From Nitrospirae bacterium UBA4572 (GTDB lineage: Bacteria > Nitrospirota > Leptospirillia > Leptospirillales > Leptospirillaceae): DNA of 63,193 nucleotides. The position numbers and the translations under genes are program-made. Position 1 is the stretch's first letter, and the number at the start of each line of letters is the position of its first letter. The notes beneath the pieces are model-generated. The model did no database searches and was not told where the DNA came from. It saw only the letters and a program-made list of their open reading frames with translations. The stretch is taken from NCBI GenBank assembly GCA_002387725.1, contig DGKK01000025.1, positions 10,400 to 73,592 of the forward strand, written 5' to 3'. Shown here piece by piece: positions 28,724 through 54,319 of the stretch.

Positions 28724-29043
28724 GCCTTCAGTCGTGAAAGCGTTTTTCGCGCCTGAACCATCTGGTCGAGTAGCTGATCGAAGGACGTTGTCAGCGCGGG
28801 ATTCCGGCCCATGATGACATAATAACCCGGAGGGAAACCGTCGGTTAACCGATAGGCTTCCCTGAGGCGTCTCCGGACGCGGTTTCGGAAAACAGCCTTC
28901 CCGATCTTTTTTCCCACGAGTACGCTGAGACGATAGTCGCTGGAATTCTGACATAGAAGGACAAAGGACGAGGAGACAACCTTTATGCCGGGAGATTCGA
29001 TGATGCGCTGGATTTCACCACGGGTAAGCGAGACTGGCTTCAA
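28720..29043 (-). CDS. rnpA: RNase P protein component
   Basis: 107-aa basic ORF (..[20 protein letters not shown]..) between rpmH and yidD. Confidence 0.85.
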
Positions 29044-31639: not shown

Positions 31640-32234
31640 ATCCCGACTCTTCGGCTTGCCCGAGGAGTCCTTTGTCTTTACCGTGCCCAGAAAAGGGCTG
31701 ATCACCAAAACGGAGACGAGGGTGATCTCCTTGATGAAGCTGGATCTGCGTCCCGGGCAGGTTCTCTGGGATATCGGTGCGGGTTCGGGATCGGTCGGCA
31801 TCGAGGCCGCCCGCCTTGTTCCGGACCTTAAGGTCATTGCTGTCGAAAAAGATCCGGCCGATTATGAGTGCCTGAAAAAAAACATTGAAGCCTTTGGCCT
31901 CGGGGAGAGGATCATCCCAATTTTTGGCAAGGCTCCTGAGGCGCTTTTCCAGGCGGCTCCGCCCGACAGGGTCTTTATCGGAGGATCGGGGGGGCGAATG
32001 GCGGACCTTCTTGACTATTGTCTGGACAAAGGCAACAACGTCGGTATAGTGGCCAATTTTGCAACGATCGAAAACCTTGCCGAGGCTCTTGACTGGGCCA
32101 AAAGGAAAAAAATGACACCCGATATTGTACATCTCCAGGTGGGGCGGGGGGTTCCCATCGTCGGTCTCACAAGGATCGAGGCCCAGAATCCTGTGACCAT
32201 TCTGACGCTCTTCCCTGCCGAGGCTCTCTCGTGA
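31629..32234 (+). CDS. cbiT: Cobalt-precorrin-6B (C15)-methyltransferase (decarboxylating)
   Basis: 201-aa ORF with SAM motif VLWDIGAGSGSVGIEAA. Follows cbiE. Confidence 0.87.
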   Translation: MNHESRLFGLPEESFVFTVPRKGLITKTETRVISLMKLDLRPGQVLWDIGAGSGSVGIEAARLVPDLKVIAVEKDPADYECLKKNIEAFGLGERIIPIFGKAPEALFQAAPPDRVFIGGSGGRMADLLDYCLDKGNNVGIVANFATIENLAEALDWAKRKKMTPDIVHLQVGRGVPIVGLTRIEAQNPVTILTLFPAEALS

Positions 32235-33367: not shown

Positions 33368-33403
33368 GGACATTCATCCAAACAGAAACGGAAAAGAACA
33401 GCC

Positions 33404-34240
33404 ATGACGAAATCATATTTGACGGAATCCTCCCCCGGAAAGGGGGGAAAGCTCTCTTTGGTAGGTTTCGGCCCTGGAGCCGAGGACCATCTCACCCCCA
33501 TTGCCAGAAAGGCCATCGAACGGGCGGACGTGGTGATCGGCTACCGGACCTATATCGATCTTGTTCGTCACCTCGTCAACGGCAAGTCGGTGATCGAGAC
33601 CGGAATGACCGAAGAAATCGACAGGGCGACCCAGGCGGTCGAGCTCGCCTACCAAGGCCAGCATGTCGTTCTTGTCAGCAGCGGTGATGTGGGAATCTAC
33701 GGCATGGCCGGGCTGGCCTTTGAGGTTCTGGGAGAGAAGGGCTGGACGGGAGAAGAGATTGAGGTGAGTGTCCTTCCGGGGATTACCGCCCTTTCTGCCT
33801 GTGCGTCTCTCCTGGGAGCGCCTCTCATGCACGACTTTGCCTCCATCAGCCTTTCCGATCTCCTGACGCCCTGGGAGGTGATCCGGAAGCGCCTTGAGGC
33901 GGCCGCGATGGCGGATTTTGTGGTGGCCCTCTATAACCCCCGTTCATCCAAAAGGGTTCGCCAGGTCGAGGAGGCCCGGGAAATTCTTCTCTCACATCGA
34001 GGGGCCGATACTCCTGTGGGAATCGTCAAGAGCGCCATGCGCGATGGTGAAACTGTGGTGATCACGACACTCGATCATATGCTCGAGCATCCGATCGGAA
34101 TGCTGACCACCATCCTTGTGGGGAATTCCCAGACTCGACTTTTGGCCGGACGGATGGTGACTCCCCGAGGGTATCGGAACAAATACGATCTGGAGACGGG
34201 GGAAAAGATTGCCAAGAAGAAAGGATCCGGCTCGGAATGA
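33404..34240 (+). CDS. cbiH: Cobalt-precorrin-3B (C17)-methyltransferase
   Basis: 278-aa ORF. KLSLVGFGPGAEDHLTPIARKAIERADVVIGYRTYIDL is typical of CbiH/CobJ. Confidence 0.9.
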   Translation: MTKSYLTESSPGKGGKLSLVGFGPGAEDHLTPIARKAIERADVVIGYRTYIDLVRHLVNGKSVIETGMTEEIDRATQAVELAYQGQHVVLVSSGDVGIYGMAGLAFEVLGEKGWTGEEIEVSVLPGITALSACASLLGAPLMHDFASISLSDLLTPWEVIRKRLEAAAMADFVVALYNPRSSKRVRQVEEAREILLSHRGADTPVGIVKSAMRDGETVVITTLDHMLEHPIGMLTTILVGNSQTRLLAGRMVTPRGYRNKYDLETGEKIAKKKGSGSE

Positions 34241-34776
34241 ATGACTCAGAAAAGGAAAAGGGGCTGGTCATCGTCTATACCGGAGACGGGAAGGGAAAGA
34301 CAACAGCGGCCCTTGGGCTCCTTTACCGTGCCTCGGGCTACCGAATGAGAAGCCTGATGATCCAGTTCATGAAGGGGCGGATGCATTCCGGGGAGCGGGA
34401 GGCGGCTACCCGCGATTCCAATGGACTTGTGACGATCGTCCCCCTTGGGGAAGGGTTTACCTGGGAGACGAAGGATGCGGCACGGGACCGCGCTGTGGCC
34501 CAGCAGGCCTTCGAGTATGCCAGGTCGGAAGCGCTCTCGGGGAAGTATGATCTTGTCGTCCTCGATGAAATCAATATCGCGCTTCGTTACAATTATATCG
34601 ATGTTGCCCAGGTTCTGGCGCTTCTTGATGAACGTCCGTTTCACCAAAATATCGTCCTGACCGGTCGAAATGCTCCGGAGGCCCTTCTGGAGCGAGCCGA
34701 TCTGGTAACCGAGATGAAGATGATCAAACATCCCTTTGAGAAAGGGATTCTTGCACGGAAAGGGGTCGACTTTTAA
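34237..34776 (+). CDS. cobO: Cob(I)yrinic acid a,c-diamide adenosyltransferase
   Basis: 179-aa ORF with P-loop-like GLVIVYTGDGKGKTTAALG and LVVLDEI. Confidence 0.9.
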   Translation: MNDSEKEKGLVIVYTGDGKGKTTAALGLLYRASGYRMRSLMIQFMKGRMHSGEREAATRDSNGLVTIVPLGEGFTWETKDAARDRAVAQQAFEYARSEALSGKYDLVVLDEINIALRYNYIDVAQVLALLDERPFHQNIVLTGRNAPEALLERADLVTEMKMIKHPFEKGILARKGVDF

Positions 34777-38063: not shown

Positions 38064-38162
38064 CGGCAGATCTCCCGGAGGGAAAATGATAGGGGCAAGA
38101 AAAAGAAAAGGAAGGCCCGAAGGCCCTCCTTTTAATTGGATCAAAGGTTCAGAAATGAGAAG

Positions 38163-38447
38163 TCAGGGATGTTTCCCCGTCCAGGATTCGGGACGGAATC
38201 CCTCCTTGGAAAGCTCGAAGGTGTCTTTAAGGTCCGTGATCATGATCATCTTGATGGCGTGGTGTTTGGCAAGGTCATCACAGATTCCCACGCAGATCTC
38301 ACAGCCCTTGCACCGATCAACGGCAACGAAGGCCGTTTTGGCGGCGTTATCGTAGAGGATGGTGTTGGCCTCGGGGCAATACTGGGTGCAGAGGCGACAG
38401 GCAGTTTCACTGCAGATAGCTTGGTCGATATGCGCGACAAGATACAA
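38163..38447 (-). CDS. 2-oxoacid:ferredoxin oxidoreductase, small 2x[4Fe-4S] ferredoxin-like subunit
   Basis: 94-aa ORF with two four-Cys clusters (CSETACRLCTQYCP and CKGCEICVGIC). Last gene of the OFOR cluster. Confidence 0.85.
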   Translation of the reverse strand: MYLVAHIDQAICSETACRLCTQYCPEANTILYDNAAKTAFVAVDRCKGCEICVGICDDLAKHHAIKMIMITDLKDTFELSKEGFRPESWTGKHP

Positions 38448-38468
38448 GGGATTTCTCCTTTAGTTAGA

Positions 38469-39164
38469 TCAGACGGAGGCCTTTTGGCTCTTAGCGGCCC
38501 AGCCGTGATCCTGGGCATATTGGTAGGCGGCGGCAATAACGGCCATGTTGCTCTTCAGAAGCTGCTCTTTTTTGGCAAATTTCTTTTCGATCACATTGTC
38601 GAGAGCGGCCGTGCCTCCGGAGACGACAAATCCCTTTCCGAGAAAGCGTTCACGGACAGACTGTTCGAGGGATTCCATCGACGGGATGCCAAGAATCGAG
38701 GCGATGGCTCCCACCATGGCCATGTTTGTGGCGAGGTCGGTTCCGCCGACTTCACGGGCCATGGTTGTGGCCGGAAGGTAGTGGATCCGTGCCTGACGCT
38801 CCTCAAGTTCGCGAACCTCATCGGGCTGCAGGGGAATCGGGGTGTCGGAGTTGATGAGGACGACACCGTTCTGCTTGAGTCCGGAATAGAACGGCATCGT
38901 ATAGGATTTTCCGTGAGTGATCACCTGAGGATGGAAAATCATGATCACGTTGGGGTAGATGATTTCCCCAATTTCATAAATTCTGTCGATGGCAATGCGA
39001 ACGTAGGATTCAACCGGAGCCATGCGCTTCTCGGAGCCGAAAAAGGGAACAAGGGTGCTTTCCCCGCCATTGATCACCATCCCGTTGCTCAGGATGTGGG
39101 AGGCGGTGACGACTCCCTGGCCTCCGATACCGGCCATACGGATGTTGTAACGCTTGAGTTGCAT
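38469..39164 (-). CDS. 2-oxoacid:ferredoxin oxidoreductase, gamma subunit
   Basis: 231-aa ORF. N-terminus IRMAGIGGQGVVTASHIL is typical of the OFOR gamma domain. Confidence 0.9.
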   Translation of the reverse strand: MQLKRYNIRMAGIGGQGVVTASHILSNGMVINGGESTLVPFFGSEKRMAPVESYVRIAIDRIYEIGEIIYPNVIMIFHPQVITHGKSYTMPFYSGLKQNGVVLINSDTPIPLQPDEVRELEERQARIHYLPATTMAREVGGTDLATNMAMVGAIASILGIPSMESLEQSVRERFLGKGFVVSGGTAALDNVIEKKFAKKEQLLKSNMAVIAAAYQYAQDHGWAAKSQKASV

Positions 39165-39229
39165 GGTGCGATCTCCTTCAATTGGGGGAGGAGAGAACGA
39201 TTGCCGTTTCCCCTCCCGGGTCCTGACTC

Positions 39230-40093
39230 CTACTTCTTGGCTTTCTTGGAGGTATCGATGGATTCAAGGTAGGCCTTGGCTTCATCGGAGATGATTTCCA
39301 TGAAACCGTAACGCTTCGATTCGATCTCCCGGGCATCGTCAAGAACCTTCGGGGTCGGGATGGCGTATTCGATATTGCAGGAGGTGTAGGCCTGAATAAA
39401 GGTGGGACCGACTTCTCGGGCAATCATGACGGCTTTCCTAACCACGGAAGCCACCCGGGTCGGATTGGTGGGGGTCAGACGGGCAATGTAGGCAACGCCT
39501 GATGTCTGGGCCAGACCGATCATGTCCATCTTGTCGAAGAGCTTGCCCTTGGGGGCCATCTTGAGGAGGGCACCGCGCTCGGTCATGCCGCTCTCCTGAC
39601 CTCCGGTATTCCCATAGACTTCGTTGTCGAGCATGATGGTGGTAAAACGTTCCTTGCGGAACCAGGAGTGCATCACGGCGCTGAAACCGATGTCCGCCAG
39701 TCCGCCGTCACCTGCCATCACGACCACGTCCTTGGCCTGATCCTTGAACCGGACTTCAAGGCCGCGCTTGAGGCCGGAGGCCACCGCATTGGTGTCCCCG
39801 TAGTTTCCGTAGATGAAGGGAATCGAAGTCTGGGTCAATGCGAGTCGACCGCATCCGGCCGTTCCGATGAGAATGGTGTGCTCGGGGTTGGGGAGTCCCA
39901 CCATCGTGAGACGGATGAAAAGGGTCATGGCGCAACCGGCGCACATGGGATGCTCCTCGAGGACCTCCTTGAAGGAGCCCATTTCGGAGACCTTTTTCTG
40001 TTTCCCGTAGGGACCGCGCTCCACGAGGTCCACGTATTCCTTGGTCATGTACTTCTCCCAACCGGGAGTGATGGTCATATTCTTAAAGCTCAT
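39230..40093 (-). CDS. 2-oxoacid:ferredoxin oxidoreductase, beta (TPP-binding) subunit
   Basis: 287-aa ORF with Cys ligands (HPMCAGCA, GTAGCG) and TPP motif VVMAGDGGLADIGFS...NEVYGNTGGQ. Confidence 0.92.
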   Translation of the reverse strand: MSFKNMTITPGWEKYMTKEYVDLVERGPYGKQKKVSEMGSFKEVLEEHPMCAGCAMTLFIRLTMVGLPNPEHTILIGTAGCGRLALTQTSIPFIYGNYGDTNAVASGLKRGLEVRFKDQAKDVVVMAGDGGLADIGFSAVMHSWFRKERFTTIMLDNEVYGNTGGQESGMTERGALLKMAPKGKLFDKMDMIGLAQTSGVAYIARLTPTNPTRVASVVRKAVMIAREVGPTFIQAYTSCNIEYAIPTPKVLDDAREIESKRYGFMEIISDEAKAYLESIDTSKKAKK

Positions 40094-40177
40094 TGGTCAG
40101 CTCCATATTCTTGATAAGTCAAAGAAGTTTTCTTTTGACGTCGTGTTGTTCTGATGACCCTGAATGTCTTGACGTGG

Positions 40178-41422
40178 CTAAAAAACAAATTTCTTGTTCG
40201 GGAAGATCGTCTGAAGGATCATCTCCGTGGGCATGGACATACCGCCGTAGACCCGAGGTCCGGCAACGATCTCTGCCTTGGAGTGTCCGTACAGTGCGGT
40301 GACGATTTCACGATGAAGCCATCCCATGTAGTTAAACTCGGGGACGATGATTCTCTTCGCGTGCTTGCAGGCCTCGCGAAGTTCCGGCGTGGGGAAGGGG
40401 CGAATCGAACGGACCTTGATGAGTCCGATCTTGGTGTTGTGTTCCTCTTCCGCCTGACGGACAGCCTCCCGGGACTGGGAGACGGCACTCCCGGAAGCGA
40501 TCAGCATGATTTCTGCATCTGGGTTGACGACCTCGATCAGGCCTCCCATGTATTTGTTGATGTAGCGACGGGCTCTCTCGTTGGCAGCCCATACTTCCTG
40601 CTGCCAGGAGGCATGAACCTGATAGCTGATGAAGTTGCTCTTCTGGATCGGCGCATCGCGGGAAAGACGGGCCGGAGGATTTTCGTTGTCCATTGCCGGA
40701 ACGGCTTCGGCATAGGGATCTCTCGGAGGAAGCTTGATGTCCTTCGAGGGAATGTTGACATATCCGCGGGCATGGGTGACAAAGAATCCGTCCACCGCCA
40801 CCGCCACGGGGAGGGTGACCTCAGGTCGCTCGGAAATGATGAAGGCCTTCATGGTGTAGTCGAAGAAGTCCTGCTGATTCTCTCCGTGGAGGAGGATAAG
40901 ACCGGAATTGAGAAGATAGGCGAGCTCGACATTGTCGGGCTGGATGGCGAGAGGGGCATTGACCACCCGGCACATGATCAGGAGAACTGCGGGAATCCGT
41001 CCACCTGGCCAGGAGGCGATCACTTCCATGCCTCTCATGAGTCCGGGACCGGCGGTGGCGGTCATGGACCGGGCGCCTGCCCGGGAAGAGCCGGCAATGG
41101 CGGACATCACGCCGATTTCTTCTTCTCCACGGAAATATTCCTTGACATATCCTTCGGCCCAAAGGGAGCCCACCTGCTGCATGGTCTCGCTCTGGGGAGT
41201 GATCGGGTAGGAGATGGCGACGTCGACGTTGGAGCGGCGAATGGCCTCCTTGGCGGCTTCGGACCCTGTAATGAACGCTCTTTCCCGAGGGGCTTCGAAG
41301 AACATGTATTCCGGGGTAACGACCTTCTGTCGATCGCCCGCGGAGAGTTCGCTCTCGGGGGTTCCCTTGACTTCAGGGGCTTTGCCTGCCTGGACGTCTT
41401 TGACTCCTGCCGAATCGGACAT
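40178..41422 (-). CDS. 2-oxoacid:ferredoxin oxidoreductase, alpha subunit
   Basis: 414-aa ORF with the YPITP motif (VAISYPITPQSE) and an OFOR domain I/II pattern. Confidence 0.92.
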   Translation of the reverse strand: MSDSAGVKDVQAGKAPEVKGTPESELSAGDRQKVVTPEYMFFEAPRERAFITGSEAAKEAIRRSNVDVAISYPITPQSETMQQVGSLWAEGYVKEYFRGEEEIGVMSAIAGSSRAGARSMTATAGPGLMRGMEVIASWPGGRIPAVLLIMCRVVNAPLAIQPDNVELAYLLNSGLILLHGENQQDFFDYTMKAFIISERPEVTLPVAVAVDGFFVTHARGYVNIPSKDIKLPPRDPYAEAVPAMDNENPPARLSRDAPIQKSNFISYQVHASWQQEVWAANERARRYINKYMGGLIEVVNPDAEIMLIASGSAVSQSREAVRQAEEEHNTKIGLIKVRSIRPFPTPELREACKHAKRIIVPEFNYMGWLHREIVTALYGHSKAEIVAGPRVYGGMSMPTEMILQTIFPNKKFVF

Positions 41423-41748
41423 TCATGACTCCTTAATATGGAAGATGGTCAGTGAAGAGAGGGTGAAAACGCTAAAGCTTGATTGAATCGGGCCAAGGCT
41501 CCGAACCAGGGTCCAGGGGGACGCCAGAGTTGTCGTGGCGTGTCGTGAACCAAGGCATGCCGGGAATCCGTGTCTATTTCCTGGGCTAAGGAGATCGGCA
41601 TATGAAGAAAGCCATCAACCCGGGATCTGCCTGTCCAATTTGTCCCGGAGAGGATCCCGCATCTTCAATCAGCCTGCGACAACAATATTATCCAGCGTTC
41701 GAATACACTATCACCAGTTCTCAAATCAAGTCAAACCTGGGGAAGTCT

Positions 41749-41777
41749 CCTCTTGATCCCTTGAAGGGATCAAGAGG
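41749..41777 (-). terminator. Perfect 12-bp-stem hairpin (CCTCTTGATCCC-TTGAA-GGGATCAAGAGG), possible terminator or processing/operator site
   Basis: Seen directly, ~70 nt downstream of the 203-aa gene stop. There is no clean U-tract on the minus-strand transcript, so the terminator assignment is tentative. Confidence 0.35.
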
Positions 41778-41845
41778 CCGGATTCCTGCGAAAGTTCTTG
41801 TTTCGTTTCTTTTTTTCTCTCTCCTAGCAGTCAATCCAGGAAGAC

Positions 41846-42457
41846 TCATTCGGCATGTTCGTCGAGTCCTGCGGCGAGATCATGGCGAAACTCCTCTGGA
41901 ATGTGCAGGGCCTTTGTCTCGTCCCACTTCCAGTCCGGACGCTTTTCGGGGTATTTGACGAGATTCCGGGAATGGGCCACCCCTTCCGGTGTGGCTCCCC
42001 AGGGAGTGAAGGCGGAATCGGAGAGAAGGGCCGAGATCTCGCGGGTCAGACTTTGTAAAAGGTCGAGCTCCCGGACATCGAGATGAATGTGGCCCGTCGG
42101 GGCTAGGCCATGGTCATCAAGAAGAAGGATGGTCCCGCAGGAATCCCGGATGCTCTCGAGGTGCACAAGGATGGAATCCAGCCGGCCCTTGGGAATCCCG
42201 GAGAGAAGAGTGATTCCCGATGAGAAGACAAGGGTGTCCGCCGGCTTGAAGTCGGAAACGTGCGCCAGATCGATGGCGGGAATCGTCTCCTCGAAAAAAC
42301 GCATCAGGCGACGGCGCTCCGCATCGGTATCATTCCAACCCCAACGGGTCGACGATCCGATCATGAGCGTAGGGCGCTCCGAGGTCAGAATCAATCGGGC
42401 AAGGGATCGCACATCATGAGAAGCGGCGTGTGTGGGTGTCATTGTGGTCTCTCGCAT
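41846..42457 (-). CDS. 203-aa soluble protein, candidate fifth (ForD/PorD-like) subunit of a five-subunit OFOR
   Basis: ORF with no motif I can assign. Its size (~22 kDa) and position upstream of alpha-beta-gamma-ferredoxin match my recollection of the Hydrogenobacter forDABGE layout. The start may be ATG 42457 or 42442. Confidence 0.55.
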   Translation of the reverse strand: MRETTMTPTHAASHDVRSLARLILTSERPTLMIGSSTRWGWNDTDAERRRLMRFFEETIPAIDLAHVSDFKPADTLVFSSGITLLSGIPKGRLDSILVHLESIRDSCGTILLLDDHGLAPTGHIHLDVRELDLLQSLTREISALLSDSAFTPWGATPEGVAHSRNLVKYPEKRPDWKWDETKALHIPEEFRHDLAAGLDEHAE

Positions 42458-42589
42458 ATAGTGTGGTCGGTTCTGAACAAAAGGAAGAGCTTCCGTGACG
42501 GTGTGTCGGTCTGAAATCCCGCTCCTGGGATGTTTTGTCCGGTCTTTCTATGTTAAGGGTCCTTCGAGGACCAAATCAAGGAGCAGCCG

Positions 42590-43081
42590 TCAGGAGTGGT
42601 GAGGAGGAGACCCAAAGGCCCGGAGCACTCCCTCGACAATGGCCTCCGGAGGAGGGGGACAGCCGTGAACTGTGACATCGGGTGGAAGAATTGAGGAAAG
42701 TCCATCGTGGGTCGCGTAGCTTCCCCGGAACACCCCTCCGGAGATGGCGCAGTCCCCAACGGCCAGGACCCGTTTCGGAGCGGGCATCGCCTGGTGGGTC
42801 GTTTCAAGGGCTTCCTTCATATGGCAGCTCACCGGTCCGGTAACCAGAAGAATGTCGGCGTGGCGCGGAGAGGCAACAAATGAGAATCCAAGGCTGGAGA
42901 GGGAGGTGACGGGATTTTCCAGGGCCCAGAGTTCGAGCTCGCATCCATTGCAGGAGCCGGCATCCACATGGCGGATGGAGGCGCTATGGAGAAACGGAGG
43001 TCGTCCTGTCTCTTCCTGAGTCCTGGTGGGAGATTCGGTCAGTGTGCCTGTCTTCAAAATCTTCCAGAGAAGTTTCCACAT
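42590..43081 (-). CDS. NuoB/HycG/HyfI-like small subunit (one [4Fe-4S] site retained)
   Basis: 163-aa ORF with DAGSCNGCELE, VGDCAISGG and VHGCPPPP, the four-Cys pattern of the proximal/N2-type cluster. Confidence 0.9.
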   Translation of the reverse strand: MWKLLWKILKTGTLTESPTRTQEETGRPPFLHSASIRHVDAGSCNGCELELWALENPVTSLSSLGFSFVASPRHADILLVTGPVSCHMKEALETTHQAMPAPKRVLAVGDCAISGGVFRGSYATHDGLSSILPPDVTVHGCPPPPEAIVEGVLRAFGSPPHHS

Positions 43082-43090
43082 GGGAGTCTC

Positions 43091-44647
43091 CTAAAGGTCC
43101 GAGGCACTGTAGCTCGGATTGAATGACTTGTTGATCAGAGGGAAGTCGGCCACGAGATTCCCGGGGACAGAGGCTTCAAGCGCATGCCACAGAAGGGGCG
43201 AACCATCCGCGATATGGGCATCTGCGAGAATCTTGCCCGGGAGGATCCGGACCCATCCCAGAACCTCTCCGCGGAACCCTTCCACAATGCCGGCTCCTTC
43301 CCGGGGGGCCGGAGGGTCCGGGATCGTCGCGCAGATGTCGGGTCCGGGAAAGCTTGTCAGGAGGGCATGAGTCAGTCGCAGGGATTCAAATATTTCGAAA
43401 AAACGGATCCGGACCCGAGAGGCCACGTCTCCGATATGGTCGAGCGCCAGGGCGGGAGCAAAGCGGTGCACAGGGTCTTCCCGATGGTCGACGCGAAGAT
43501 CCCATCCCTGACCACTGGCGCGGCCAGCCACCCCTCCGATCCCCAGTCTGCCGGCAACCTCCGGAGACAGAATGCCCGTATTCTGGAATCGATCCTGAAG
43601 CCCGCCGTGATCGGCGTAAATCCTTTCAAGAAGGGAGACCTCGGCCTGAAGTCGTTCATTCTCCAGGAGAAGGGTTTCGATCATGGCTCCGGAGAGGCCT
43701 GTTGAGACACCTCCGGGAACAACCGAATCAAAGAGGAGTCGGTGGCCGAAAAGGGACAGGTTGATGCGATGCATGGCTTCGCGGAGGGGATGAAAGAGGG
43801 AGAGAGCGACAGCGAGCCCCGCATCATTTCCGAGAGCCCCCAGGTCGGCCAGGTGATTCGCGATTCTCTCCCTCTCCAGCAGAATGGCCCGGACAAACCG
43901 GACCCCCTCCGAGATCTCGATATCCAGGGCCTCTTCGACGGCCTTTGAAAAGGCCAGCGAGGTGGCCACTGCCGAATCTCCCGAAATCCGTGAGGCCAAA
44001 CGGGCGGCTTCCGGGAGATTCCGTCCCCGAAAAAGGCGCGCGATTCCCTTGTGGGTATAGCCCATCCGGGTCTCCAGACGGAGGACTTTTTCTCCGACAA
44101 CGGAAAAGCGGAAATGACCCGGCTCGATGATGCCGGCGTGAACGGGCCCGACGGGAATCTCATGGACGCCGTCCCCGCGGACCCTTACGAAAGGATAGTC
44201 CATACCTTGAGCCAGGCGTGTCAGGGGAGAAGGGGTGTGTGAGAGGGGGGGATGGCTCCAGAGGCCGTGATCAATCCAGGGACGAAGGTCCGCCAACCCG
44301 TCCGGGATGAGCCCAAAGAGATCGTGGATCGTACGCTCAAAGCGGGCAGCAGGAGGGAAGATTGAGGAGAGGGAGGGAAAAGAGACGGCGTCCTTTGGCA
44401 GGGAAAGGGACAGAAGAACAAGACCTTCCCTGAGCAGAATCGCTGCCCGGATGGCCGGGAGGGACTCGGACCAGAGCGTCAGAAGCCTGGCTCCATTGCT
44501 GGACAGAAGGCGCGCCTGTGCCAGGTAACGGTCGGGTGACTCGGTGACGAGAAAGGTATGGGGAATGCCGCCATGAAGACGATCAAAGCCGGTCTCGGGA
44601 GAAAAAAAAGGGGATGAGTCACCCTCCATGGGGACCTCCAAGGACAA
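43091..44647 (-). CDS. Fused NuoC-NuoD / HycE-HyfG-like subunit lacking all Ni-Fe ligand cysteines
   Basis: 518-aa ORF with a NuoC-like FERTIHDLFGL and a HycE-like core (VGPVHAGIIEPGHFRF). The ligand motifs read RISGDSAVAT and NPSYSASDL. There is a single Cys in the whole protein. Confidence 0.9.
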   Translation of the reverse strand: MSLEVPMEGDSSPFFSPETGFDRLHGGIPHTFLVTESPDRYLAQARLLSSNGARLLTLWSESLPAIRAAILLREGLVLLSLSLPKDAVSFPSLSSIFPPAARFERTIHDLFGLIPDGLADLRPWIDHGLWSHPPLSHTPSPLTRLAQGMDYPFVRVRGDGVHEIPVGPVHAGIIEPGHFRFSVVGEKVLRLETRMGYTHKGIARLFRGRNLPEAARLASRISGDSAVATSLAFSKAVEEALDIEISEGVRFVRAILLERERIANHLADLGALGNDAGLAVALSLFHPLREAMHRINLSLFGHRLLFDSVVPGGVSTGLSGAMIETLLLENERLQAEVSLLERIYADHGGLQDRFQNTGILSPEVAGRLGIGGVAGRASGQGWDLRVDHREDPVHRFAPALALDHIGDVASRVRIRFFEIFESLRLTHALLTSFPGPDICATIPDPPAPREGAGIVEGFRGEVLGWVRILPGKILADAHIADGSPLLWHALEASVPGNLVADFPLINKSFNPSYSASDL

Positions 44648-46100
44648 GAAGGGCCTTCTGATAAACCGAGTAGAGAGTGGCCGGAAAGACCGTTCCCAGG
44701 ATCAGCGCCAGTCCGAGATGGATCCAGATAGGGAAAAACGTGAGCTTGGGCAGTGGGGGGAGGGGTTTCGTCGTCATGGAGGGGCCCCCTTCACTGATCT
44801 CGAGAATGCGGAAGATCAGTACTCCGAAGGTGACGAAGAGGGCGAGAAGGAGAAAGGGAACGGCAAAGGGAATTCTTTTGACGGCCTCGGTGATGATCAG
44901 AAGCTCGCTGGCAAAGAGGGCGAAGGGAGGGAGGCCCGTGATGGCGAATCCTCCCGCCAGGAGTGCCCGGGCGAGTCCGGGCGTCCTGAGGGCCACCTCG
45001 CGGATGGACGGAATCTTCTGTGACCCGGAGGTCTGGACAATGTGTCCCACGGCAAAGAAGATCGCCGATTTGACGAGGCTGTGAGTGGTCATATGGAGTA
45101 GTCCCGCAAAGGTGGCCAGCGGGCCACCGATGCCGAAGGCCAGAGTGGCGAGCCCCATGTGCTCGATCGAGGAGTAGGCGAAAAGGCGTTTGATGTCCTG
45201 CCTCTTCCACATCGAGATCGAGGCGAGGAGGACGGAGGCCAGTCCGAATCCCATCAGGAGATTCGAGGGCATGGAGCTGTGGATCGCTCCGTCTGCCAGG
45301 GACTTGACTCTGAGGATGGCATAGAGGGCGACGTTCAGGAGGAGGCCCGAAAGGACCGCCGAGATGGGTGTGGGACCTTCCGCATGGGCATCCGGAAGCC
45401 AGTTGTGAAGGGGGACAAGCCCGACCTTGGTTCCGTATCCCACCATAAAAAAGACGAAGGCCAGCGACATCACGGTGGGTTCGAGCTGCGACTTGACGGT
45501 CTCGAGGTGAGTGAGAAGAAGCGCCGTTCCTCCGGGTCCCAGGGTTTTTTCGGAGGCGAAATAAAGGAGGATCGTTCCGAAAAGAGCCTGGGCAATTCCG
45601 ACGCCGCAAAGGATGAAGTATTTCCAGGAGGCCTTGATGGCGGCGGGGGTTCGGGTCCACCCTACGAGAAGGACCGTCGCCAGGGTCGCTCCTTCGAGCG
45701 CCACCCACAAAAGACCCAGGTTGTTGCTTGCCAGAACGACAATCATCGTCAGGACGAAAATCTGGTAAAGCGCGAGATAGAGGCGGGTCCTTTCCGGTGT
45801 CAGTCTGCCATGAGAAGCCTCGATCGTCATGTACCGGAGAGAGAAAAAGGAGGTCGTCGCCGCGACTCCTCCGGTGATGACAAGAAAAAGGGAGGAGAAG
45901 GTGTCGGCGAAGAGATTCTCGTCGAGGGCGACCAGGGGGCCATGAAGCGAGACCTCTTCACCGAGGATGAGGGTGAGGAAAAAGGTCAGGAGCGAGAAGG
46001 CGATATTCAGGAGCGGGGCGATTTTCCTGTGGCCCCAGAGGCCAAGAACGATGGCTCCGGTGATCGGTGAAAGTATCATGAGGACGAGAATCACAGTCAC
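44619..46100 (-). CDS. Antiporter-like membrane subunit (HyfF / NuoM-N family)
   Basis: 493-aa polytopic ORF with the signature LHNWLPDAHAEGPTPISAVLSGLLLNVALYAILR. Confidence 0.88.
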   Translation of the reverse strand: MTVILVLMILSPITGAIVLGLWGHRKIAPLLNIAFSLLTFFLTLILGEEVSLHGPLVALDENLFADTFSSLFLVITGGVAATTSFFSLRYMTIEASHGRLTPERTRLYLALYQIFVLTMIVVLASNNLGLLWVALEGATLATVLLVGWTRTPAAIKASWKYFILCGVGIAQALFGTILLYFASEKTLGPGGTALLLTHLETVKSQLEPTVMSLAFVFFMVGYGTKVGLVPLHNWLPDAHAEGPTPISAVLSGLLLNVALYAILRVKSLADGAIHSSMPSNLLMGFGLASVLLASISMWKRQDIKRLFAYSSIEHMGLATLAFGIGGPLATFAGLLHMTTHSLVKSAIFFAVGHIVQTSGSQKIPSIREVALRTPGLARALLAGGFAITGLPPFALFASELLIITEAVKRIPFAVPFLLLALFVTFGVLIFRILEISEGGPSMTTKPLPPLPKLTFFPIWIHLGLALILGTVFPATLYSVYQKALLVLGGPHGG

Positions 46101-46771
46101 TCCGTCGGGGTATTGTCCATGTGTTTCAGGTCAAAGCTTTCGAATGTTTCCCGGATCTGGAAGAAGAAGATCCCGAAGACGAAGGTGCCCACAAGAACAT
46201 CGAAGGCCACGCCAAGCTCCACGACCATGGGCATCCCATAGGTGGCATTGATCGCGGAGAAAAAGAGGGCGTTTTCCATTCCCAGAAATCCCAACACCTG
46301 CGTGACGGCCTTTCGTCGGGTGATCATCATGAGGAAGGAGAGGAGCAGGGCGGCCAGACCTACTCCGATCAACCCGCGGGAGACCGTATTGGCCATCTCG
46401 GAGATGGGGGCGGCCAGGGCAAAGGAAAAAACCACGACAAAGAGTCCGACCACCATGGTGGTCGGAACGTTAAGAAGAACCTCCACCTCTCCCCGGATGT
46501 GCAGTCGCTCGAGAAGGCGAAAGAGAAGGATCGGCAGCAGAAGAACCTTGAAGGCCAGGGTGAAGAGGGCGGAGAAGAAAAGATGAGGCTCTCCTGCGGC
46601 AAGGGCCACAGAGAGCGTGCTGAGTGTCAGGAGGATTCCCTGCAGGGCAAAGATTCTGACAAGGGAGGCCATTCGCCTCATGGAGAGCATGGCGAACGAG
46701 GAAAGGAGAAGGGCGCTTCCGAGGAAGCCGACAAGCGGGCTCGTCGGGGGAGAGACAAAAGAGGCAGCCAT
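46097..46771 (-). CDS. HyfE-like small membrane subunit
   Basis: Start at ATG 46771 (MAASFVSPP..., 224 aa). Multi-TM with a GFLGMENALFF block resembling HyfE. Confidence 0.78.
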   Translation of the reverse strand: MAASFVSPPTSPLVGFLGSALLLSSFAMLSMRRMASLVRIFALQGILLTLSTLSVALAAGEPHLFFSALFTLAFKVLLLPILLFRLLERLHIRGEVEVLLNVPTTMVVGLFVVVFSFALAAPISEMANTVSRGLIGVGLAALLLSFLMMITRRKAVTQVLGFLGMENALFFSAINATYGMPMVVELGVAFDVLVGTFVFGIFFFQIRETFESFDLKHMDNTPTE

Positions 46772-46772
46772 G

Positions 46773-47741
46773 TTATCCCTCAAGGACAAAGTGAAGGAGA
46801 AAACCCAGCGTTGACAGAAGATAGGCCAATGCCGTGAATTCCGGGACCCTGAAGATCCTGAGCTTCGCAAAGAGTGATTCGATCAGGGCCAGAAGAGCTC
46901 CGAGAATGAAAAGTTTTCCCAAAAGAAGGATCCCCCCTTCGAGAAGGCCCGAAAGAGCGAAAGTCCGCGGAATCCCCGCGGGGGCAAAAAAGTCGATTCC
47001 CAGAAGGAGGTAGAGAAGGAGCTTTTGCATCGATCCCCATTCCATCAGGGCCAGAAGGGGGCCGGAATATTCGAGAAGCATCGCCTCGTGGATCATCGTC
47101 AGCTCCAGGTGCGTCGATGGGTTGTCGATGGGGAGCCGGGCATTTTCTCCGAGGAAGACAAGGATGAAGGCCATGGCGGCAATCAGGAGGCTGGGATGAA
47201 AGGGGAGAGGGCCCTTCGAGAAAGATGTCAGGATCGAAGGGATCGACGTGGATCCCGACCAGAGCGAGACGGTGAAGAGGATCATGAGGGTGGCAGGCTC
47301 GGTCAGAAAGGCCACCATCATCTCCCTGCGCCCTCCCATGTCTCCGAAGGGGGTTCCGAGATCCATGGCGGCCATTGCCATGGAAAACCGGGCCAAAGAG
47401 AAGAGGCCGACAAGCGTGACGGCATCGGCGACGGGAGCCAGAGGAGGGGATGTTCCCAAAAAGGGGACAAGAAGGGCCGCCACCGCCATGATGGAGAAAA
47501 AGAGAGGCGGGACAGCGAGGAAAAGAGGCGAATGCCCCTCCGGAAGAATCATCTCCTTGCGAAAGAGGCGCACAAGATTCCTCCAGGGTTGCAAAATCCC
47601 AGCAGGGGATCGGTTCTGGAGAATGGCCCGGACGGTACCGATCCACCCATATAAAAGGGGGGCCAGGAAAAGGACAAAGGCCATCTGAAGAAGGGAGATC
47701 GCGATGGCTAAGGAGCCGTGAAAGGAAGAAGCTAGTGCCAT
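46773..47741 (-). CDS. NuoH/HycD/HyfC-like membrane subunit
   Basis: 322-aa polytopic ORF with a NuoH-family pattern (..RLPIDNPSTHLELTMIHEAMLLEYSG..). Confidence 0.88.
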   Translation of the reverse strand: MALASSFHGSLAIAISLLQMAFVLFLAPLLYGWIGTVRAILQNRSPAGILQPWRNLVRLFRKEMILPEGHSPLFLAVPPLFFSIMAVAALLVPFLGTSPPLAPVADAVTLVGLFSLARFSMAMAAMDLGTPFGDMGGRREMMVAFLTEPATLMILFTVSLWSGSTSIPSILTSFSKGPLPFHPSLLIAAMAFILVFLGENARLPIDNPSTHLELTMIHEAMLLEYSGPLLALMEWGSMQKLLLYLLLGIDFFAPAGIPRTFALSGLLEGGILLLGKLFILGALLALIESLFAKLRIFRVPEFTALAYLLSTLGFLLHFVLEG

Positions 47742-49783
47742 CGGAGCACCGACAGAAGAAGGATGAGGGTGGTGAAGCTGTAGATCAGGTAGATTGAAAT
47801 TCGCCCCGAGCGAACACGTTCCGCCCCTTCCGCAATGGCGACAAAAAGACGGAACAGCGGGCGATAGAGGAGCGGCCAGTGAGGATCCTCGACGGAGAGG
47901 AGAAAGACAGGATCGGGATCATCCGGAGAGGGGAGATGTCTCTTCATGGAGAAAAAGACTGGAAAGAAATGGCGAATCGGCTGGGCAAAGGATTCGGCTG
48001 TGGCCTGGGAGCGTCTGTAAGAATCGCGATAGCCGCATCCCCAGGGGATTGAGAGGCGACGCTTTTTTCCTTCTGTCCCCAGAACAAGCCAGAGGACGGG
48101 CAGTGTCAGGATGACGAGGAGAAGGAGAAGAAAAAGAGGGGATGTGGAGGGGCCGGCCGGGGGAAGGGGGAGAAGCCAGGCCCATCCGTAGGCTCCGGAG
48201 GGAGAGGGCAGGGTCGTGGAGGTCAGGGGAGAGACGGCCTTGAGGATTTCACCGAGGACGAGGCTGGGAAAGAGCCCCAGGAAGAGAGAGCCCATGGCCA
48301 GGCCTCCCATGCCCAATCGTTCAAAGAGGGAACATTCGTGAGCCGCCCTGGCCCCGTCGGAACGGGGCTGGCCAAGATATCCCACCCCGAAGAACTTGAG
48401 AAATCCCATGGCGGCGAGGGCCGATGCCAACACAAGTATGGCCGCGCCAAAAAGAACGGCACTGCGTTGAATGGTTCCGAGGAGGTCGCGGGCCTGCAGG
48501 GTGGACTGGAGAAGAAGCCATTCCGAGACGAAGCCGTTCGTCGGAGGAATCCCTGAAATGGAAAGGACCGCGATGAGGACCAAGGCTCCGGAGACAGGCA
48601 TTTTTTTGAAGAGCCCTCCCATCCGGTTGAGATTCGTCTCCCCCGTCGCATGAATCATGGTTCCCGCCCCAAGGAAGAGAAGTGCCTTGAAGAAGGCATG
48701 GTTGAGGGCGTGGTAGAGAGCGGCACAGAGTGCCAGGGTTCCTGCCAGGGGGTGTCCTGTCTTCAGATAGAGAATGCCGAGCCCTGTTCCCAAGAGAATC
48801 AGGCCGATGTTTTCAATGGAAGAGTAGGCGAGAAGGGTCTTGGTGTCAGACTGGAGGATGGCGTGAAGAATCCCGAACAGGGCCATGAAGGCTCCGGTGA
48901 CGAGCAGGAGAATGCCAAATGAGGGGGCGAGCTGGGGAAGTCCCACGAGGTCGAAGAGGGCGCGGATCAGTCCGTAGATGGCCGCCTTGAGCATGACCCC
49001 GCTCAACAGGGCCGAGGCCGGAGCCGGGGCGGCCGGATGCGCCAGCGGGAGCCAGACGTGAAGAGGGACAACGCCGGCCTTGGCTCCGAAGCCCAATAGA
49101 AAAAGGAGGGAAACCAGAAGGGCTTCTCCTGAGGACAGATGGTTCATCTTCAGGGCCTCGAAAGAGAAGGAGGCCATCGTCAGCGAGCCGGAGGGAAGCT
49201 CCCGGGTGGCCAGGAGCGCAAAGGCGGTCACGATCAGCATGCTTCCTCCATGCGCCAGGAGGAGCGTGAGATAGCTGGCGCGACGAACCCCTTCGGTGTT
49301 TTCTCCGGAAAGGATCAGGAAAAACGAGGCGACGGCCATGATCTCCCAGAAAAGCATGAAGGAGTAGACATCAGCGGCGAGGAAGACTCCCCCCGTAAAA
49401 AAGAGAAAAACCGTGGTCTTGGCCAGAAACTGGGCCTTCTTTTCAGGGGCCTCATTCTTTGTGTATCCGGCCGAATAGAGCAGAACTCCCGCCGAGGCTC
49501 CTCCCAGAAGAAGAAGAAAAAAGCCCGAGAGAGGATCGAGGCGAAGATGAAATGAGAGTCCGGGAATTCCTCCGGGTAGGATCAGTCGGGTGTCCGAGGT
49601 TGTGACAAGGGGGAGAAGCCCCGAAAGGGCAATGGCCAGACTCTCCAGGGAGAGGAGGGTAAAGAAAAAGGAGGCCAGAGAGGGGCGGCGCCCGACAACT
49701 CCGGCACCGGCCAGTCCTGTGAAAAGAAGGGTGAGAAGTGCGGCGAGAGTCAGGAAAATCGGAGAGGGAAAGAGCGTCATCAC
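47732..49783 (-). CDS. NuoL/HycC/HyfB-like antiporter-type membrane subunit
   Basis: 683-aa polytopic ORF. LHVWLPLAHPAAPAPASALLSGVMLKAAIYGLIR, plus a C-terminal PWGCGY block as in HycC/HyfB. Confidence 0.9.
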   Translation of the reverse strand: MMTLFPSPIFLTLAALLTLLFTGLAGAGVVGRRPSLASFFFTLLSLESLAIALSGLLPLVTTSDTRLILPGGIPGLSFHLRLDPLSGFFLLLLGGASAGVLLYSAGYTKNEAPEKKAQFLAKTTVFLFFTGGVFLAADVYSFMLFWEIMAVASFFLILSGENTEGVRRASYLTLLLAHGGSMLIVTAFALLATRELPSGSLTMASFSFEALKMNHLSSGEALLVSLLFLLGFGAKAGVVPLHVWLPLAHPAAPAPASALLSGVMLKAAIYGLIRALFDLVGLPQLAPSFGILLLVTGAFMALFGILHAILQSDTKTLLAYSSIENIGLILLGTGLGILYLKTGHPLAGTLALCAALYHALNHAFFKALLFLGAGTMIHATGETNLNRMGGLFKKMPVSGALVLIAVLSISGIPPTNGFVSEWLLLQSTLQARDLLGTIQRSAVLFGAAILVLASALAAMGFLKFFGVGYLGQPRSDGARAAHECSLFERLGMGGLAMGSLFLGLFPSLVLGEILKAVSPLTSTTLPSPSGAYGWAWLLPLPPAGPSTSPLFLLLLLVILTLPVLWLVLGTEGKKRRLSIPWGCGYRDSYRRSQATAESFAQPIRHFFPVFFSMKRHLPSPDDPDPVFLLSVEDPHWPLLYRPLFRLFVAIAEGAERVRSGRISIYLIYSFTTLILLLSVLRWH

Positions 49784-49979
49784 GGATGCATCATCTTTTC
49801 GGTTGGAAGGAGATGCCCTGCTTTCCTTAGAGGGGGAGAGGAAGGAGTATGTTCAAAATAGTAGATCATCTCTGTTCATTATACTATATTTTTTCGGGGG
49901 AGAGTAAAGTCGGGAATTCATTGCCCTCCGTCTTGAAATTGGAGCTCAAGGGCCCTAGGATGAGAGAAGGAGGGGGAAA

Positions 49980-52756: not shown

Positions 52757-54319
52757 TTGGCCTATTTTATTGACCGAAAAAATCTTCAGAAAAAATCGCT
52801 GGACCGAAAAATCCCCACCACCATGGCGACCCAGCATCCCGACAATGCCGCCCCTCCCTACTGGAAGGGAAATCAGGATCCCTTCATCAGTACCCTCGAT
52901 GAGATCGAGGAGTGCTACCGCAGCTACATCGATATCGGCTGTCAGGAATACATGTGGGACTGGGAAGGGAAGTATGTGGACGAAGGGGTGGTGGAAAAGC
53001 TCTTTTCCACCTACTACGACTACTTCAAGGACAACCAGATCGGGAAGGATATCTTTCTGACCTTCCGGCTTCCCAATATCTGGTATGAGAAGGAGTACCG
53101 GATTGCCCGGGCCTATATCGGGATCCTGACCTTTGAGGACCTGGCCCGAGATCTCCATCTCAAAACCCCCCCCGTCTTCGAGGTGATCCTGCCCATGACG
53201 GACGAAGGGCAGAAGATGCTCTACCTTCAGCAGACCTTCCGGAAGATCGCAAAACTCAAGAATCAGGTCTTCGACGAGGAGGGAACGGTCAAGGACTCCT
53301 CCTATCTTCAGGTCATTCCCCTGGTTGAGGGAGTCTCGGAGCTGACCGCCTCGAGAAAGATCCTCCATGACTATGTGGACCTCCACGATCGGGAGTACGG
53401 CACCAAGCCGCTCTATCTCCGTCCCTTCATTGCCCGCTCCGATCCGGCGTTAAATGCCGGGATCGTGCCGGCGACCATCGCCGCCAAGGTGGCCCTTTCA
53501 GAATATTACAAGTTCGAAGAGGAAACCGGCATTCCGGTCTTTCCGATCATGGGTGTGGGGTCGCTTCCCTTCCGGGGAGGGCTCTCTCCCTGGAACGTCC
53601 CCCATTTCATCGAGGAATATCCCGGTGTCCGGACGGTCACGGTGCAGTCGGCCTTCCGGTACGACTATCCCCAGGAAGATGTCCGGGAGGCCATTACCCT
53701 CCTCAACCGCTCCCTTCCGGGCGCCGTCCCTCTGGCCTATACCCCCGAGGAGGTCAAGGCCGGGGAGAGGCTCGCGGAGATCTTTTCCGACCACTACCGA
53801 AAAACGATCGAGGAGGTGGCCGACGTCATCAACCGCGTCTCCTCCCGCATCCCTCCCCGTCGGGAGAGGAAGCTGCACATCGGTCTTTTTGGCTACTCCC
53901 GGGGAATTGGCCAGAAGCAGCTCCCCCGCGCCATCGGCTTTACGGCCTCCCTTTATTCCCTGGGGATTCCTCCCGAGCTGATCGGAACCGGCCGCGGAAT
54001 CGCCCAAGCCATTCGGGAAGGGTTGGGCGACCACCTCTCGCTCTTCTACCGGCGACTCAAGGACGACATGCAGGATGCCGGAAACTTCCTGAACAAGGAG
54101 AATCTGGAATTCCTGGCCGCCGAGGACCAGGCATGGAGAACCGTCAAGGAGGACATCGACCTCATTGAGGACTTCTTCAAGATCACCTTGGGTCCCGTCA
54201 CGATCGAACACTATCTTCACCGGAATTTCGTGTCGAGCATCTATTTCCTCATGCAGGAGGAAAAAGACTTCTCGGAATACCTCCTCAATGCGGCGACACT
54301 CCGCCGCTCTCTCGGGTAA
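52757..54319 (+). CDS. Archaeal-type phosphoenolpyruvate carboxylase (PepcA family)
   Basis: 520-aa ORF (TTG start). N-terminal KIPTTMATQHPDNA matches the short archaeal-type PEPC signature (..TQHPDN..), and the ~520-aa length fits that family rather than the ~900-aa bacterial Ppc. Confidence 0.82.
   Translation: MAYFIDRKNLQKKSLDRKIPTTMATQHPDNAAPPYWKGNQDPFISTLDEIEECYRSYIDIGCQEYMWDWEGKYVDEGVVEKLFSTYYDYFKDNQIGKDIFLTFRLPNIWYEKEYRIARAYIGILTFEDLARDLHLKTPPVFEVILPMTDEGQKMLYLQQTFRKIAKLKNQVFDEEGTVKDSSYLQVIPLVEGVSELTASRKILHDYVDLHDREYGTKPLYLRPFIARSDPALNAGIVPATIAAKVALSEYYKFEEETGIPVFPIMGVGSLPFRGGLSPWNVPHFIEEYPGVRTVTVQSAFRYDYPQEDVREAITLLNRSLPGAVPLAYTPEEVKAGERLAEIFSDHYRKTIEEVADVINRVSSRIPPRRERKLHIGLFGYSRGIGQKQLPRAIGFTASLYSLGIPPELIGTGRGIAQAIREGLGDHLSLFYRRLKDDMQDAGNFLNKENLEFLAAEDQAWRTVKEDIDLIEDFFKITLGPVTIEHYLHRNFVSSIYFLMQEEKDFSEYLLNAATLRRSLG

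Follow-up and report, generated by a model that had tools for sequence, protein, structure and literature searches.

In a 63,193-nt stretch of contig DGKK01000025.1 of Nitrospirae bacterium UBA4572 (the window, to whose positions all coordinates refer), an eleven-gene block on the minus strand (38163-49783) encodes an energy-converting hydrogenase-related (Ehr) complex and a 2-oxoacid:ferredoxin oxidoreductase (OFOR), both members of known families. Comparison with related genome loci and contigs (L001-L112, of which L032-L111 are 80 metagenomic Ehr loci) favors, with moderate confidence, the reading that these are two separable units made neighbors by a lineage-specific rearrangement. Unit 1 would be a tightly packed six-gene Ehr operon and unit 2 a five-subunit OFOR of the for type. 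The for set would have left an ancestral for-por tandem of OFOR clusters in the group III/IV Leptospirillum lineage, which would have produced the adjacency, and the delta gene and the alpha-beta-gamma-epsilon genes would each be under their own conserved promoter-like element. The adjacency alone does not indicate obligate coupling of Ehr and OFOR. The initial annotation had viewed the block as a candidate ferredoxin-linked energy converter; what it observed was borne out, and of its interpretation the identities of the modules were retained, the argument from linkage being weak. The eleven genes are listed below in the order of transcription.

47732-49783, minus strand: Ehr subunit, HyfB/HycC/NuoL-like, antiporter-type, 683 aa (Pfam Proton_antipo_M, E 1e-48)
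46773-47741, minus strand: Ehr subunit, HyfC/HycD/NuoH-like, 322 aa (Pfam NADHdh, E 3e-30)
46097-46771, minus strand (listed with a TTG start at 46870): Ehr subunit, HyfE-like membrane protein, about 224 aa (NCBIfam hydrogenase 4 membrane subunit, E 2e-20)
44619-46100, minus strand: Ehr subunit, HyfF/NuoN-M-like, antiporter-type, 493 aa (Pfam Proton_antipo_M, E 3e-51)
43091-44647, minus strand: Ehr large subunit, NuoC-NuoD/HycE-like fusion, 518 aa as listed (Pfam Complex1_30kDa and Complex1_49kDa)
42590-43081, minus strand: Ehr small subunit, NuoB/HycG-like, 163 aa (Pfam Oxidored_q6, E 2e-28)
41846-42457, minus strand: predicted OFOR delta subunit, divergent and similar to PF02552/the epsilon chain of carbon monoxide dehydrogenase (CODH), listed as 203 aa (weak CO_dh match, hhalign, tblastn and position)
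40178-41422, minus strand: OFOR alpha subunit, 414 aa (Pfam POR_N, PFOR_II and Transketolase_C)
39230-40093, minus strand: OFOR beta subunit, thiamine pyrophosphate (TPP)-binding, 287 aa (Pfam TPP_enzyme_C)
38469-39164, minus strand: OFOR gamma subunit, 231 aa (Pfam POR, E 5e-35; NCBIfam PorC_KorC above cut-off)
38163-38447, minus strand: OFOR epsilon subunit, ferredoxin-like with 2x[4Fe-4S], 94 aa (weak matches to Fer4 families)

The ends of the open reading frames (ORFs) agree exactly with the eleven consecutive minus-strand genes first reported, and the six Ehr genes abut or overlap one another in an operon-like manner, the NuoH-like gene overlapping the upstream HyfB-like gene by 10 nt. 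Family matches and the HycE alignment described below agree with the original call of a six-gene, Cys-less hydrogenase-like complex. The HyfB-like protein scored 661 bits against NCBIfam hydrogenase 4 subunit B (cut-off, 667 bits), and the HyfF-like protein scored 630 bits against hydrogenase 4 subunit F, which exceeds the 543-bit cut-off. The start of the HyfE-like gene was moved to 46771 (224 aa) because its relatives are 219-225 aa long and an ATG lies at codon 34, the listed TTG at 46870 being probably too far upstream. Judged by the lengths of relatives, the large-subunit gene probably starts at 44629 (512 aa) and the delta gene at 42442 (198 aa). The OFOR beta sequence shows GDG...DNEVYGNTGGQ and a CxxC motif, and the eight Cys residues of epsilon form two cluster motifs, C-x4-C-x2-C-x3-CP and C-x2-C-x2-C-x3-C.

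The 203-aa gene, which had been set apart in an original grouping of six, one and four genes, was assigned by its sequence relationships to the OFOR as the fifth (delta) subunit, a divergent member of PF02552; the six Ehr genes of that grouping stand, and the block becomes six plus five. The Pfam CO_dh (PF02552) match is weak (19.2 bits against a cut-off of 21) and recurs, again weakly, in 8 of 10 family members. Alignment by hhalign to PF02552-positive, OFOR-adjacent proteins of other Nitrospirota gave a probability of 94.5% (E 8e-8), and tblastn with delta reached the delta genes of two related loci (L026 and L027; E 2e-4 to 2e-7). PF02552-type proteins are the delta subunits of five-subunit 2-oxoglutarate and pyruvate:ferredoxin oxidoreductases (OGOR and POR) in Aquifex and Hydrogenobacter (PMC10052474). 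The gene lies upstream of alpha, as it does in the same two loci and in the A. aeolicus OGOR, all of which are arranged delta-alpha-beta-gamma-epsilon (aq_1166 to aq_1171 in A. aeolicus; PMC10052474). Among the loci compared it was found wherever the OFOR adjoins Ehr and nowhere that Ehr stands alone. Because the 203-aa gene is taken as delta, the second unit is predicted to be a complete five-subunit OFOR in the order delta-alpha-beta-gamma-epsilon.

Structure-based searches were less informative for delta. Its AlphaFold model has a pLDDT of 77, and Foldseek returned weak, mixed matches to SIS domains, middle domains of TPP enzymes and CODH epsilon chains (TM score about 0.45), while a PDB sequence search with the 203-aa family returned only spurious matches to designed repeat proteins. 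The subunit evolves fast, with 43-98% identity within the clade versus 91-99% for alpha, and lacks the PMPDYRP...HPNLTIWHNK...HCH block of canonical deltas. Its C-terminal tail (41846-41940, about 30 codons), RPDWKWDETKAxHIPEEFRHDLAAGLDEHAE, is almost invariant in a family whose members elsewhere diverge to 45% identity; it has low AlphaFold confidence, is predicted to be disordered and may be an interaction peptide.

By tblastn, the window's alpha, beta, gamma and epsilon chains share 73-85% identity with the first (for) set of the tandem clusters of other Leptospirillum lineages, but no more than 43-54% with the second (por) set. For alpha the values are 79-82% against for and 49-51% against por, and beta (84-85%) and epsilon (73-78%) are likewise close to their for counterparts, epsilon homologues being present in L024-L028. 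When for sets from other Nitrospirota are compared, identity is 71-85%. In Levican 2008, forABGE (2-oxoglutarate) and porABGED (pyruvate) were annotated by similarity to characterized Hydrogenobacter enzymes (PMC2607301). The window OFOR is assigned as an orthologue of the for (2-oxoglutarate) set, its substrate and direction being read from orthology to that annotated set alone. A third OFOR paralogue dedicated to Ehr was also considered and is unlikely, the identity of 76-85% to the for set of other Leptospirillum being that expected for an orthologue. No second close alpha cluster from the window's clade turned up in the alpha comparisons, which did not cover the rest of the window's genome.

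Five-subunit OGOR and POR enzymes are known from Hydrogenobacter thermophilus and Aquifex aeolicus and occur in Nitrospira, Nitrospina and Leptospirillum as well. The window enzyme has the same subunits as these, in the aq_1166-aq_1171 order; it differs in its strongly divergent delta and in lying apart from por, beside Ehr. The two module types originally claimed, an Ehr-type, single-cluster, pump-like complex and an OFOR of the type used in a reductive tricarboxylic acid (rTCA) cycle, both hold. The 90%-identity cluster of alpha includes Leptospirillum ferrodiazotrophum EES53319.1, and the closest genome loci to the window are Leptospirillia or 'Nitrospirae' metagenome-assembled genomes (MAGs), by which the host is placed as Leptospirillum group III-like. 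Group III-like Leptospirillum are Fe(II)-oxidizing autotrophs that use the rTCA cycle, as the initial annotation assumed for the host.

Within the group III/IV-like clade, Ehr followed by delta-alpha-beta-gamma-epsilon is kept in L001-L005, L016, L017, L020 and L021, over large-subunit identities from 93% down to 56%, and contig D084_Lepto4C00318 of Leptospirillum group IV has both modules (G0001, alpha; G0005, large subunit). The flanks are kept in that clade as well, namely phosphoenolpyruvate (PEP) carboxylase, an inositol-phosphatase-like gene, an M50 peptidase, a thioredoxin-like gene, PrmA, PyrF, Def and the cobalamin genes. Because the whole neighborhood is syntenic in the clade, conservation of the adjacency is not specific to the pair. 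On DAHUYM010000001.1 (L022 and L028, one contig) Ehr and the for-por tandem lie about 55-60 kb apart, and past Ehr come EamA and LysR and, after these, the thioredoxin-PrmA-PyrF flank of the clade, with no OFOR. In another Leptospirillum lineage (L018, L019), rplU-rpmA-obg follows Ehr. No Ehr-OFOR adjacency was seen in L018, L019, L022 or L023, and no Ehr was seen near the OFOR in the examined flanks of the L. ferrooxidans-like and L. ferriphilum-like loci or of two further Nitrospirota loci.

The for-por tandem itself is carried by L024 and L025, which are L. ferrooxidans-like and L. ferriphilum-like, and by the outgroup L027, and the tandem was also described by Levican 2008 (PMC2607301). 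Because the tandem is common to the outgroup and to group I/II-like genomes, it is likely the ancestral state, and the window arrangement would be a derived relocation. Adjacency was not conserved across independent lineages, being restricted to the group III/IV-like clade in the loci sampled. The linkage invoked by the initial annotation is therefore upheld within this clade and absent from other Leptospirillum lineages and from wider relatives, and gene context argues only weakly for a functional link between Ehr and OFOR.

The Ehr module was also followed outside Leptospirillum. A metagenome scan yielded 80 loci with large-subunit relatives (40-52% identity, same Cys-less motifs); all six Ehr genes are present in 35, of which 21 extend 3 kb or more past the operon on its downstream side. 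In no case (0/80) did the flanks contain a homologue of an OFOR gene, all five having been compared. Relatives of the large subunit were also located in 85 records of plasmids or chromids, whose hosts include Rhizobium, Azospirillum, Burkholderia, Cupriavidus, Paraburkholderia and Variovorax. Two of these records, one from Rhizobium and one from Paraburkholderia, were examined and show hyfB-nuoH-hyfE-hyfF-nuoC-nuoB and no OFOR, with YoaK, a helix-turn-helix (HTH) regulator or spermidine-synthase-like gene, and universal stress proteins as neighbors, and Paraburkholderia xenovorans has the same six genes. The Rhizobium, Cupriavidus, Burkholderia and Azospirillum hosts are aerobic heterotrophs that are not known to have an rTCA cycle. 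When flanking ORFs of 80+ Ehr loci were clustered, no recurrent redox partner emerged.

Several further features of these neighborhoods were recorded. The best recurrent neighbor is an ORF with an acylphosphatase domain, downstream of Ehr in 9 of about 44 metagenomic loci. A NUBPL/ApbC-type Fe-S carrier gene lies beside metG upstream of Ehr in four metagenomic loci, probably through synteny among related genomes. In two Leptospirillum lineages (L018, L022) and in Rhizobium (L112), the gene immediately upstream of the Ehr operon encodes a small HTH regulator. In a betaproteobacterial MAG (L006, about 3.9-19.3 kb) the Ehr order is E, F, large, small, B, C, with an additional antiporter-like gene upstream and, on the downstream side, another NuoB-like gene together with a radical SAM gene, which suggests a duplication or a second related complex.

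Transcription signals were searched for on the minus strand around both units, and the following elements were found.

49873-49889, minus strand: promoter-like block with a -10-like TATAAT, upstream of the Ehr operon (core invariant in the window and L001-L004)
42547-42580, minus strand: promoter-like block TTGATT-17 nt-TAACAT, between the small-subunit and delta genes (footprint)
41686-41736, minus strand: promoter-like block TTGACT-16 nt-GATAGT, about 265-285 nt upstream of the alpha start (promoter scan and footprint)
38106-38133, minus strand: intrinsic-terminator-like hairpin of 12 pairs with a T-rich tail, after the last OFOR gene (strongest in the scan)

The TATAAT core upstream of Ehr is kept in L016, L017 and L020. 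Between the small-subunit and delta genes, six genomes share CTTGATTT and CCCTTA(A/C)CATAGA without variation, although the remaining Ehr-delta spacer diverges. The block upstream of alpha is nearly invariant in the same number of genomes inside a poorly conserved 423-bp spacer, and its core is kept in L016, L017 and L020, where the large subunit is about 61% identical. From conservation and consensus, these three blocks are predicted to be promoters. The same scan gave no comparable minus-strand terminator-like site between the Ehr and OFOR genes.

If the conserved block is used, alpha would have a 5' leader of about 270 nt (41423-41700, minus strand), in which the closest genomes have several conserved blocks in common and the sequence surrounding the ribosome-binding site is invariant. 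A perfect 12-bp hairpin, CCTCTTGATCCC-TTCAA-GGGATCAAGAGG, is located at 41749-41777 (minus strand), 69 nt past the delta stop and without a T-run; it is not conserved in L001 or L003. An Rfam scan of 37.5-50.5 kb (E <= 1) returned nothing, and no known riboswitch or leader was found in the two gaps.

These data bear on the proposal that the adjacency is functional, with Ehr as a proton-motive force (pmf)-driven (quinol or other donor):ferredoxin oxidoreductase that feeds the neighboring 2-oxoglutarate synthase and is co-expressed with it. The physiological question behind it, raised by the initial annotation, stands: the supply of low-potential ferredoxin for the rTCA cycle in aerobic chemolithoautotrophs on high-potential donors is described as unresolved (PMC10052474). 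Analogous proposals have been made for complex I variants of Nitrospina (PMC3578206) and Nitrospira (PMC7784846), where NUO-2 and the 2M-type Nuo, proposed to pass electrons from quinol to ferredoxin, would address the same problem of driving electrons uphill to ferredoxin for use in the rTCA cycle. Ehr and OFOR are co-oriented and lack an intervening terminator-like site, the redox cluster and pump residues are intact, and the adjacency extends across the group III/IV-like clade to 56% large-subunit identity and to D084_Lepto4C00318. The proposal is nonetheless unlikely. Neither the other Leptospirillum lineages nor any other relative sampled shows the linkage, and within the clade synteny of the entire neighborhood makes its conservation non-specific. 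Separate conserved promoter-like blocks lie between the units, in Rhizobium, Cupriavidus, Burkholderia and Azospirillum the Ehr family is commonly found on plasmids and chromids, and the large subunit aligns without equivalents of the residues that we take to be the quinone ligands. No paper discussing this adjacency or the function of Ehr in Leptospirillum was returned by a literature search.

A lineage-specific rearrangement of two separable units remains our preferred explanation, and several points weigh against it. Adjacency and co-orientation persist while the Ehr large subunit has diverged to 56% identity, and selection for adjacency would be compatible with that persistence. Every sampled Leptospirillum lineage that bears Ehr also uses this OFOR type, a co-presence compatible with a functional link without gene linkage. 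Because no terminator-like site lies between the units, read-through co-transcription is possible. Lastly, in the mechanism given below, we infer both how ferredoxin would dock at the NuoB-type cluster and what the second substrate would be.

The assignment of unit 1 to the Ehr class follows from its subunit composition. A group 4/NuoD-type large subunit without NiFe Cys motifs is encoded together with NuoB-, NuoH- and Mrp/NuoL-type proteins, and the four Cys ligands and the NuoI/HycF/EchF-like 2x[4Fe-4S] subunit of a group 4 [NiFe]-hydrogenase are missing. The relevant passages of PMC4378227 and PMC6349859 cite Marreiros et al. 2013 and Coppi 2005 for the definition of the class and give its function as unknown; Ehr complexes are widespread (PMC4378227). 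The window complex shares the NuoB-like, NuoH-like and antiporter-like subunits of the class and the six syntenic genes described for Sulfobacillus, with no defining feature that differs. Its subfamily has neither a NuoI-like subunit nor the formate dehydrogenase partner proposed for Margulisbacteria (PMC6349859).

Among solved structures, E. coli HycE (7z0s_E, E 4e-45) is the nearest to the large subunit, and MbhL (6cfw_L) matches it at E 2e-28. In the alignment to 7z0s_E, RVCGICGFAH of HycE corresponds to RISGDSAVAT and DPCYSCTD to NPSYSASD; all four NiFe cysteines are substituted (S, S, S and A), which confirms that the complex is Cys-less. The subunit retains a hydrogenase-like GPxH...EPGHFR loop and terminates directly past the second motif, without a C-terminal extension. 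The C-terminal extension of HycE is the cleavage site of its maturation protease. R[VI]SGD[ST], N[LP]SYSG[HQ]D and GPVHAGIIEPGHFR are nearly invariant in 120 homologues and 80 metagenomic loci, and the family is large and coherent and under strong purifying selection. A decaying pseudo-hydrogenase was considered and ruled out, as the pocket motifs and cluster Cys residues are conserved across >200 relatives. In at least 19 of the 80 metagenomic relatives (L032-L111) the C-terminal motif of the large subunit reads NCSY(S/A)GHD, with a Cys one position ahead of the lost NiFe cysteine.

In the small subunit, C44, C47, C111 and C141, which make up the NuoB-type cluster, are invariant in 23/23 loci, and by Pfam none of the six Ehr proteins carries a Fer4 domain; the earlier statement of a single Fe-S cluster agrees with both results. 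No NuoI/HycF-like subunit was found in the Ehr operon or in the stand-alone operons of other taxa, and no NADH-oxidizing NuoE/F/G module or NuoI is encoded within or beside the Ehr operon here or in related loci. In the membrane arm, HycC (7z0s_C, E 2e-54) is the best solved relative of the HyfB-like protein. A Glu (FWEIMA, which we take to be of the TM5 type, the labels of transmembrane helices being those we assume from complex I) and Lys residues (MLKAAIYG, HAFFKALLF) align with Glu and Lys of HycC, and GAKAG carries an extra Lys where GLLAG of HycC has Leu.

Relative to known complexes, the large subunit is, by alignment, closer to formate hydrogenlyase (FHL) and membrane-bound hydrogenase (MBH) than to complex I. 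The window shares the HyfB, C, E, F, G and I types with E. coli Hyc (FHL-1, 7Z0S) and Hyf (FHL-2), in Hyf gene order; it differs from them in having no NiFe cysteines, C-terminal extension or Fer4-domain subunit, and genes for formate dehydrogenase, hyp genes and protease genes are absent from the locus. HyfA/HycB and HyfH/HycF are presumably the Fer4-domain subunits concerned, and a counterpart of HyfD is, we assume, missing as well. The NuoB, C, D, H and L/M/N modules of complex I (NDH-1) have homologues in the window, whereas NuoA, E, F, G and I do not. The residues of Nqo4 taken as His38 and Tyr87, which are presumably the quinone-site ligands of complex I, align with Ile and Gly in the large subunit (alignment to 2fug_4 only, counted from chain residue 27). 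The originally suggested quinol donor consequently finds no sequence support, since the quinone-site residues of complex I are not matched.

The missing NuoI-like subunit is also the starting point for a possible supercomplex, in which the group III/IV OFOR would dock on Ehr, epsilon would replace NuoI/HycF and wire the OFOR to the NuoB-type cluster, and delta would serve as an adaptor, giving an FHL-like, membrane-bound, pmf-coupled 2-oxoglutarate synthase/oxidase; if so, pmf would drive reductive carboxylation without free ferredoxin. Such an architecture would resemble that of FHL, as we assume it from the 7z0s molecule names. It would fit the unusual divergence of delta, the invariant C-terminal tail of delta that is predicted to be disordered, and the position of the delta gene between the two units. 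We regard it as highly improbable, given that the same Ehr module occurs without OFOR in most hosts and that a sister lineage encodes an orthologous OFOR 55-60 kb away, in tandem with por. Moreover, the five-subunit enzymes of Aquifex were found in total soluble proteins by activity staining and mass spectrometry (PMC10052474).

Loss of all catalytic metal ligands raises a different alternative, that Ehr is not a redox enzyme and acts as an Mrp-like cation/proton transporter in pH or ion homeostasis or in stress, with a structural or regulatory Fe-S cluster and no relation to the OFOR. The two antiporter-like subunits are related to MrpA and MrpD, and proteobacterial neighbors include universal stress proteins and regulators. 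This role is improbable in view of the four invariant cluster cysteines, the very strongly conserved former active-site pocket and the retention of NuoH-, NuoCD- and NuoB-like subunits; we know of no Mrp antiporter that has subunits of these three types.

A ferredoxin-linked, ion-translocating role for Ehr is plausible. Because many aerobic Proteobacteria carry these six genes as a stand-alone module, the redox partner of Ehr would be a common cellular carrier, and since there is neither a flavin module nor a NuoI-like wire, the only plausible cytoplasmic partner is a one-electron carrier, ferredoxin or flavodoxin. This carrier would exchange electrons directly with the exposed NuoB-type cluster, and a substrate in the remodeled pocket would donate or accept electrons in a transfer coupled, reversibly, to ion translocation. 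In Leptospirillum, Ehr could run backwards and make reduced ferredoxin. Such a mechanism has the general form of the idea in the initial annotation and resembles the published proposals for the complex I variants of Nitrospina (PMC3578206) and Nitrospira (PMC7784846).

The 'formate hydrogenlyase-like' operon Rv0082-Rv0087 of M. tuberculosis (PMC6901956) also has six genes, apparently of the same types, a likeness drawn from its description only. The setting of that operon is presumably one of stress or hypoxia, and it is regulated by Rv0081, an HTH regulator encoded upstream, as is likewise the case for such a gene in L018, L022 and Rhizobium; the universal stress protein genes close to Ehr in Rhizobium and Paraburkholderia also recall it.

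The surroundings of the block were examined as well. An archaeal-type PEP carboxylase gene (52757-54319, plus strand; PEPcase_2, E 3e-142) lies about 3 kb from Ehr and is syntenic in L016, L020 and L021, which puts another carbon-assimilation gene in the same neighborhood. A cobalamin run on the plus strand (29865-34776) comprises cbiD, methylases, cbiG and cobA/cobO, followed by def, and is syntenic with the related loci. On the minus strand, parB, parA, mnmG (gidA), mnmE (trmE), yidC and yidD occur in a row at 21470-28954, where GC is lower (about 0.50). A sign change in the GC skew occurs at about 22 kb and its cumulative minimum falls near 20-22 kb, and 21470-28954 looks like an origin-proximal region of the chromosome.

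The large subunit of Ehr carries a strikingly conserved cysteine-free pocket, R-x-S-G-D-S ... N-x-S-Y-S-G-x-D. Of the hosts of plasmid and chromid copies, Rhizobium, Paraburkholderia, Cupriavidus, Burkholderia and Azospirillum are cultured and genetically tractable, and these copies make the function of the family directly testable in those hosts. If Ehr is a ferredoxin reductase, the question of the ferredoxin source for the rTCA cycle and that of Ehr function would be answered together.

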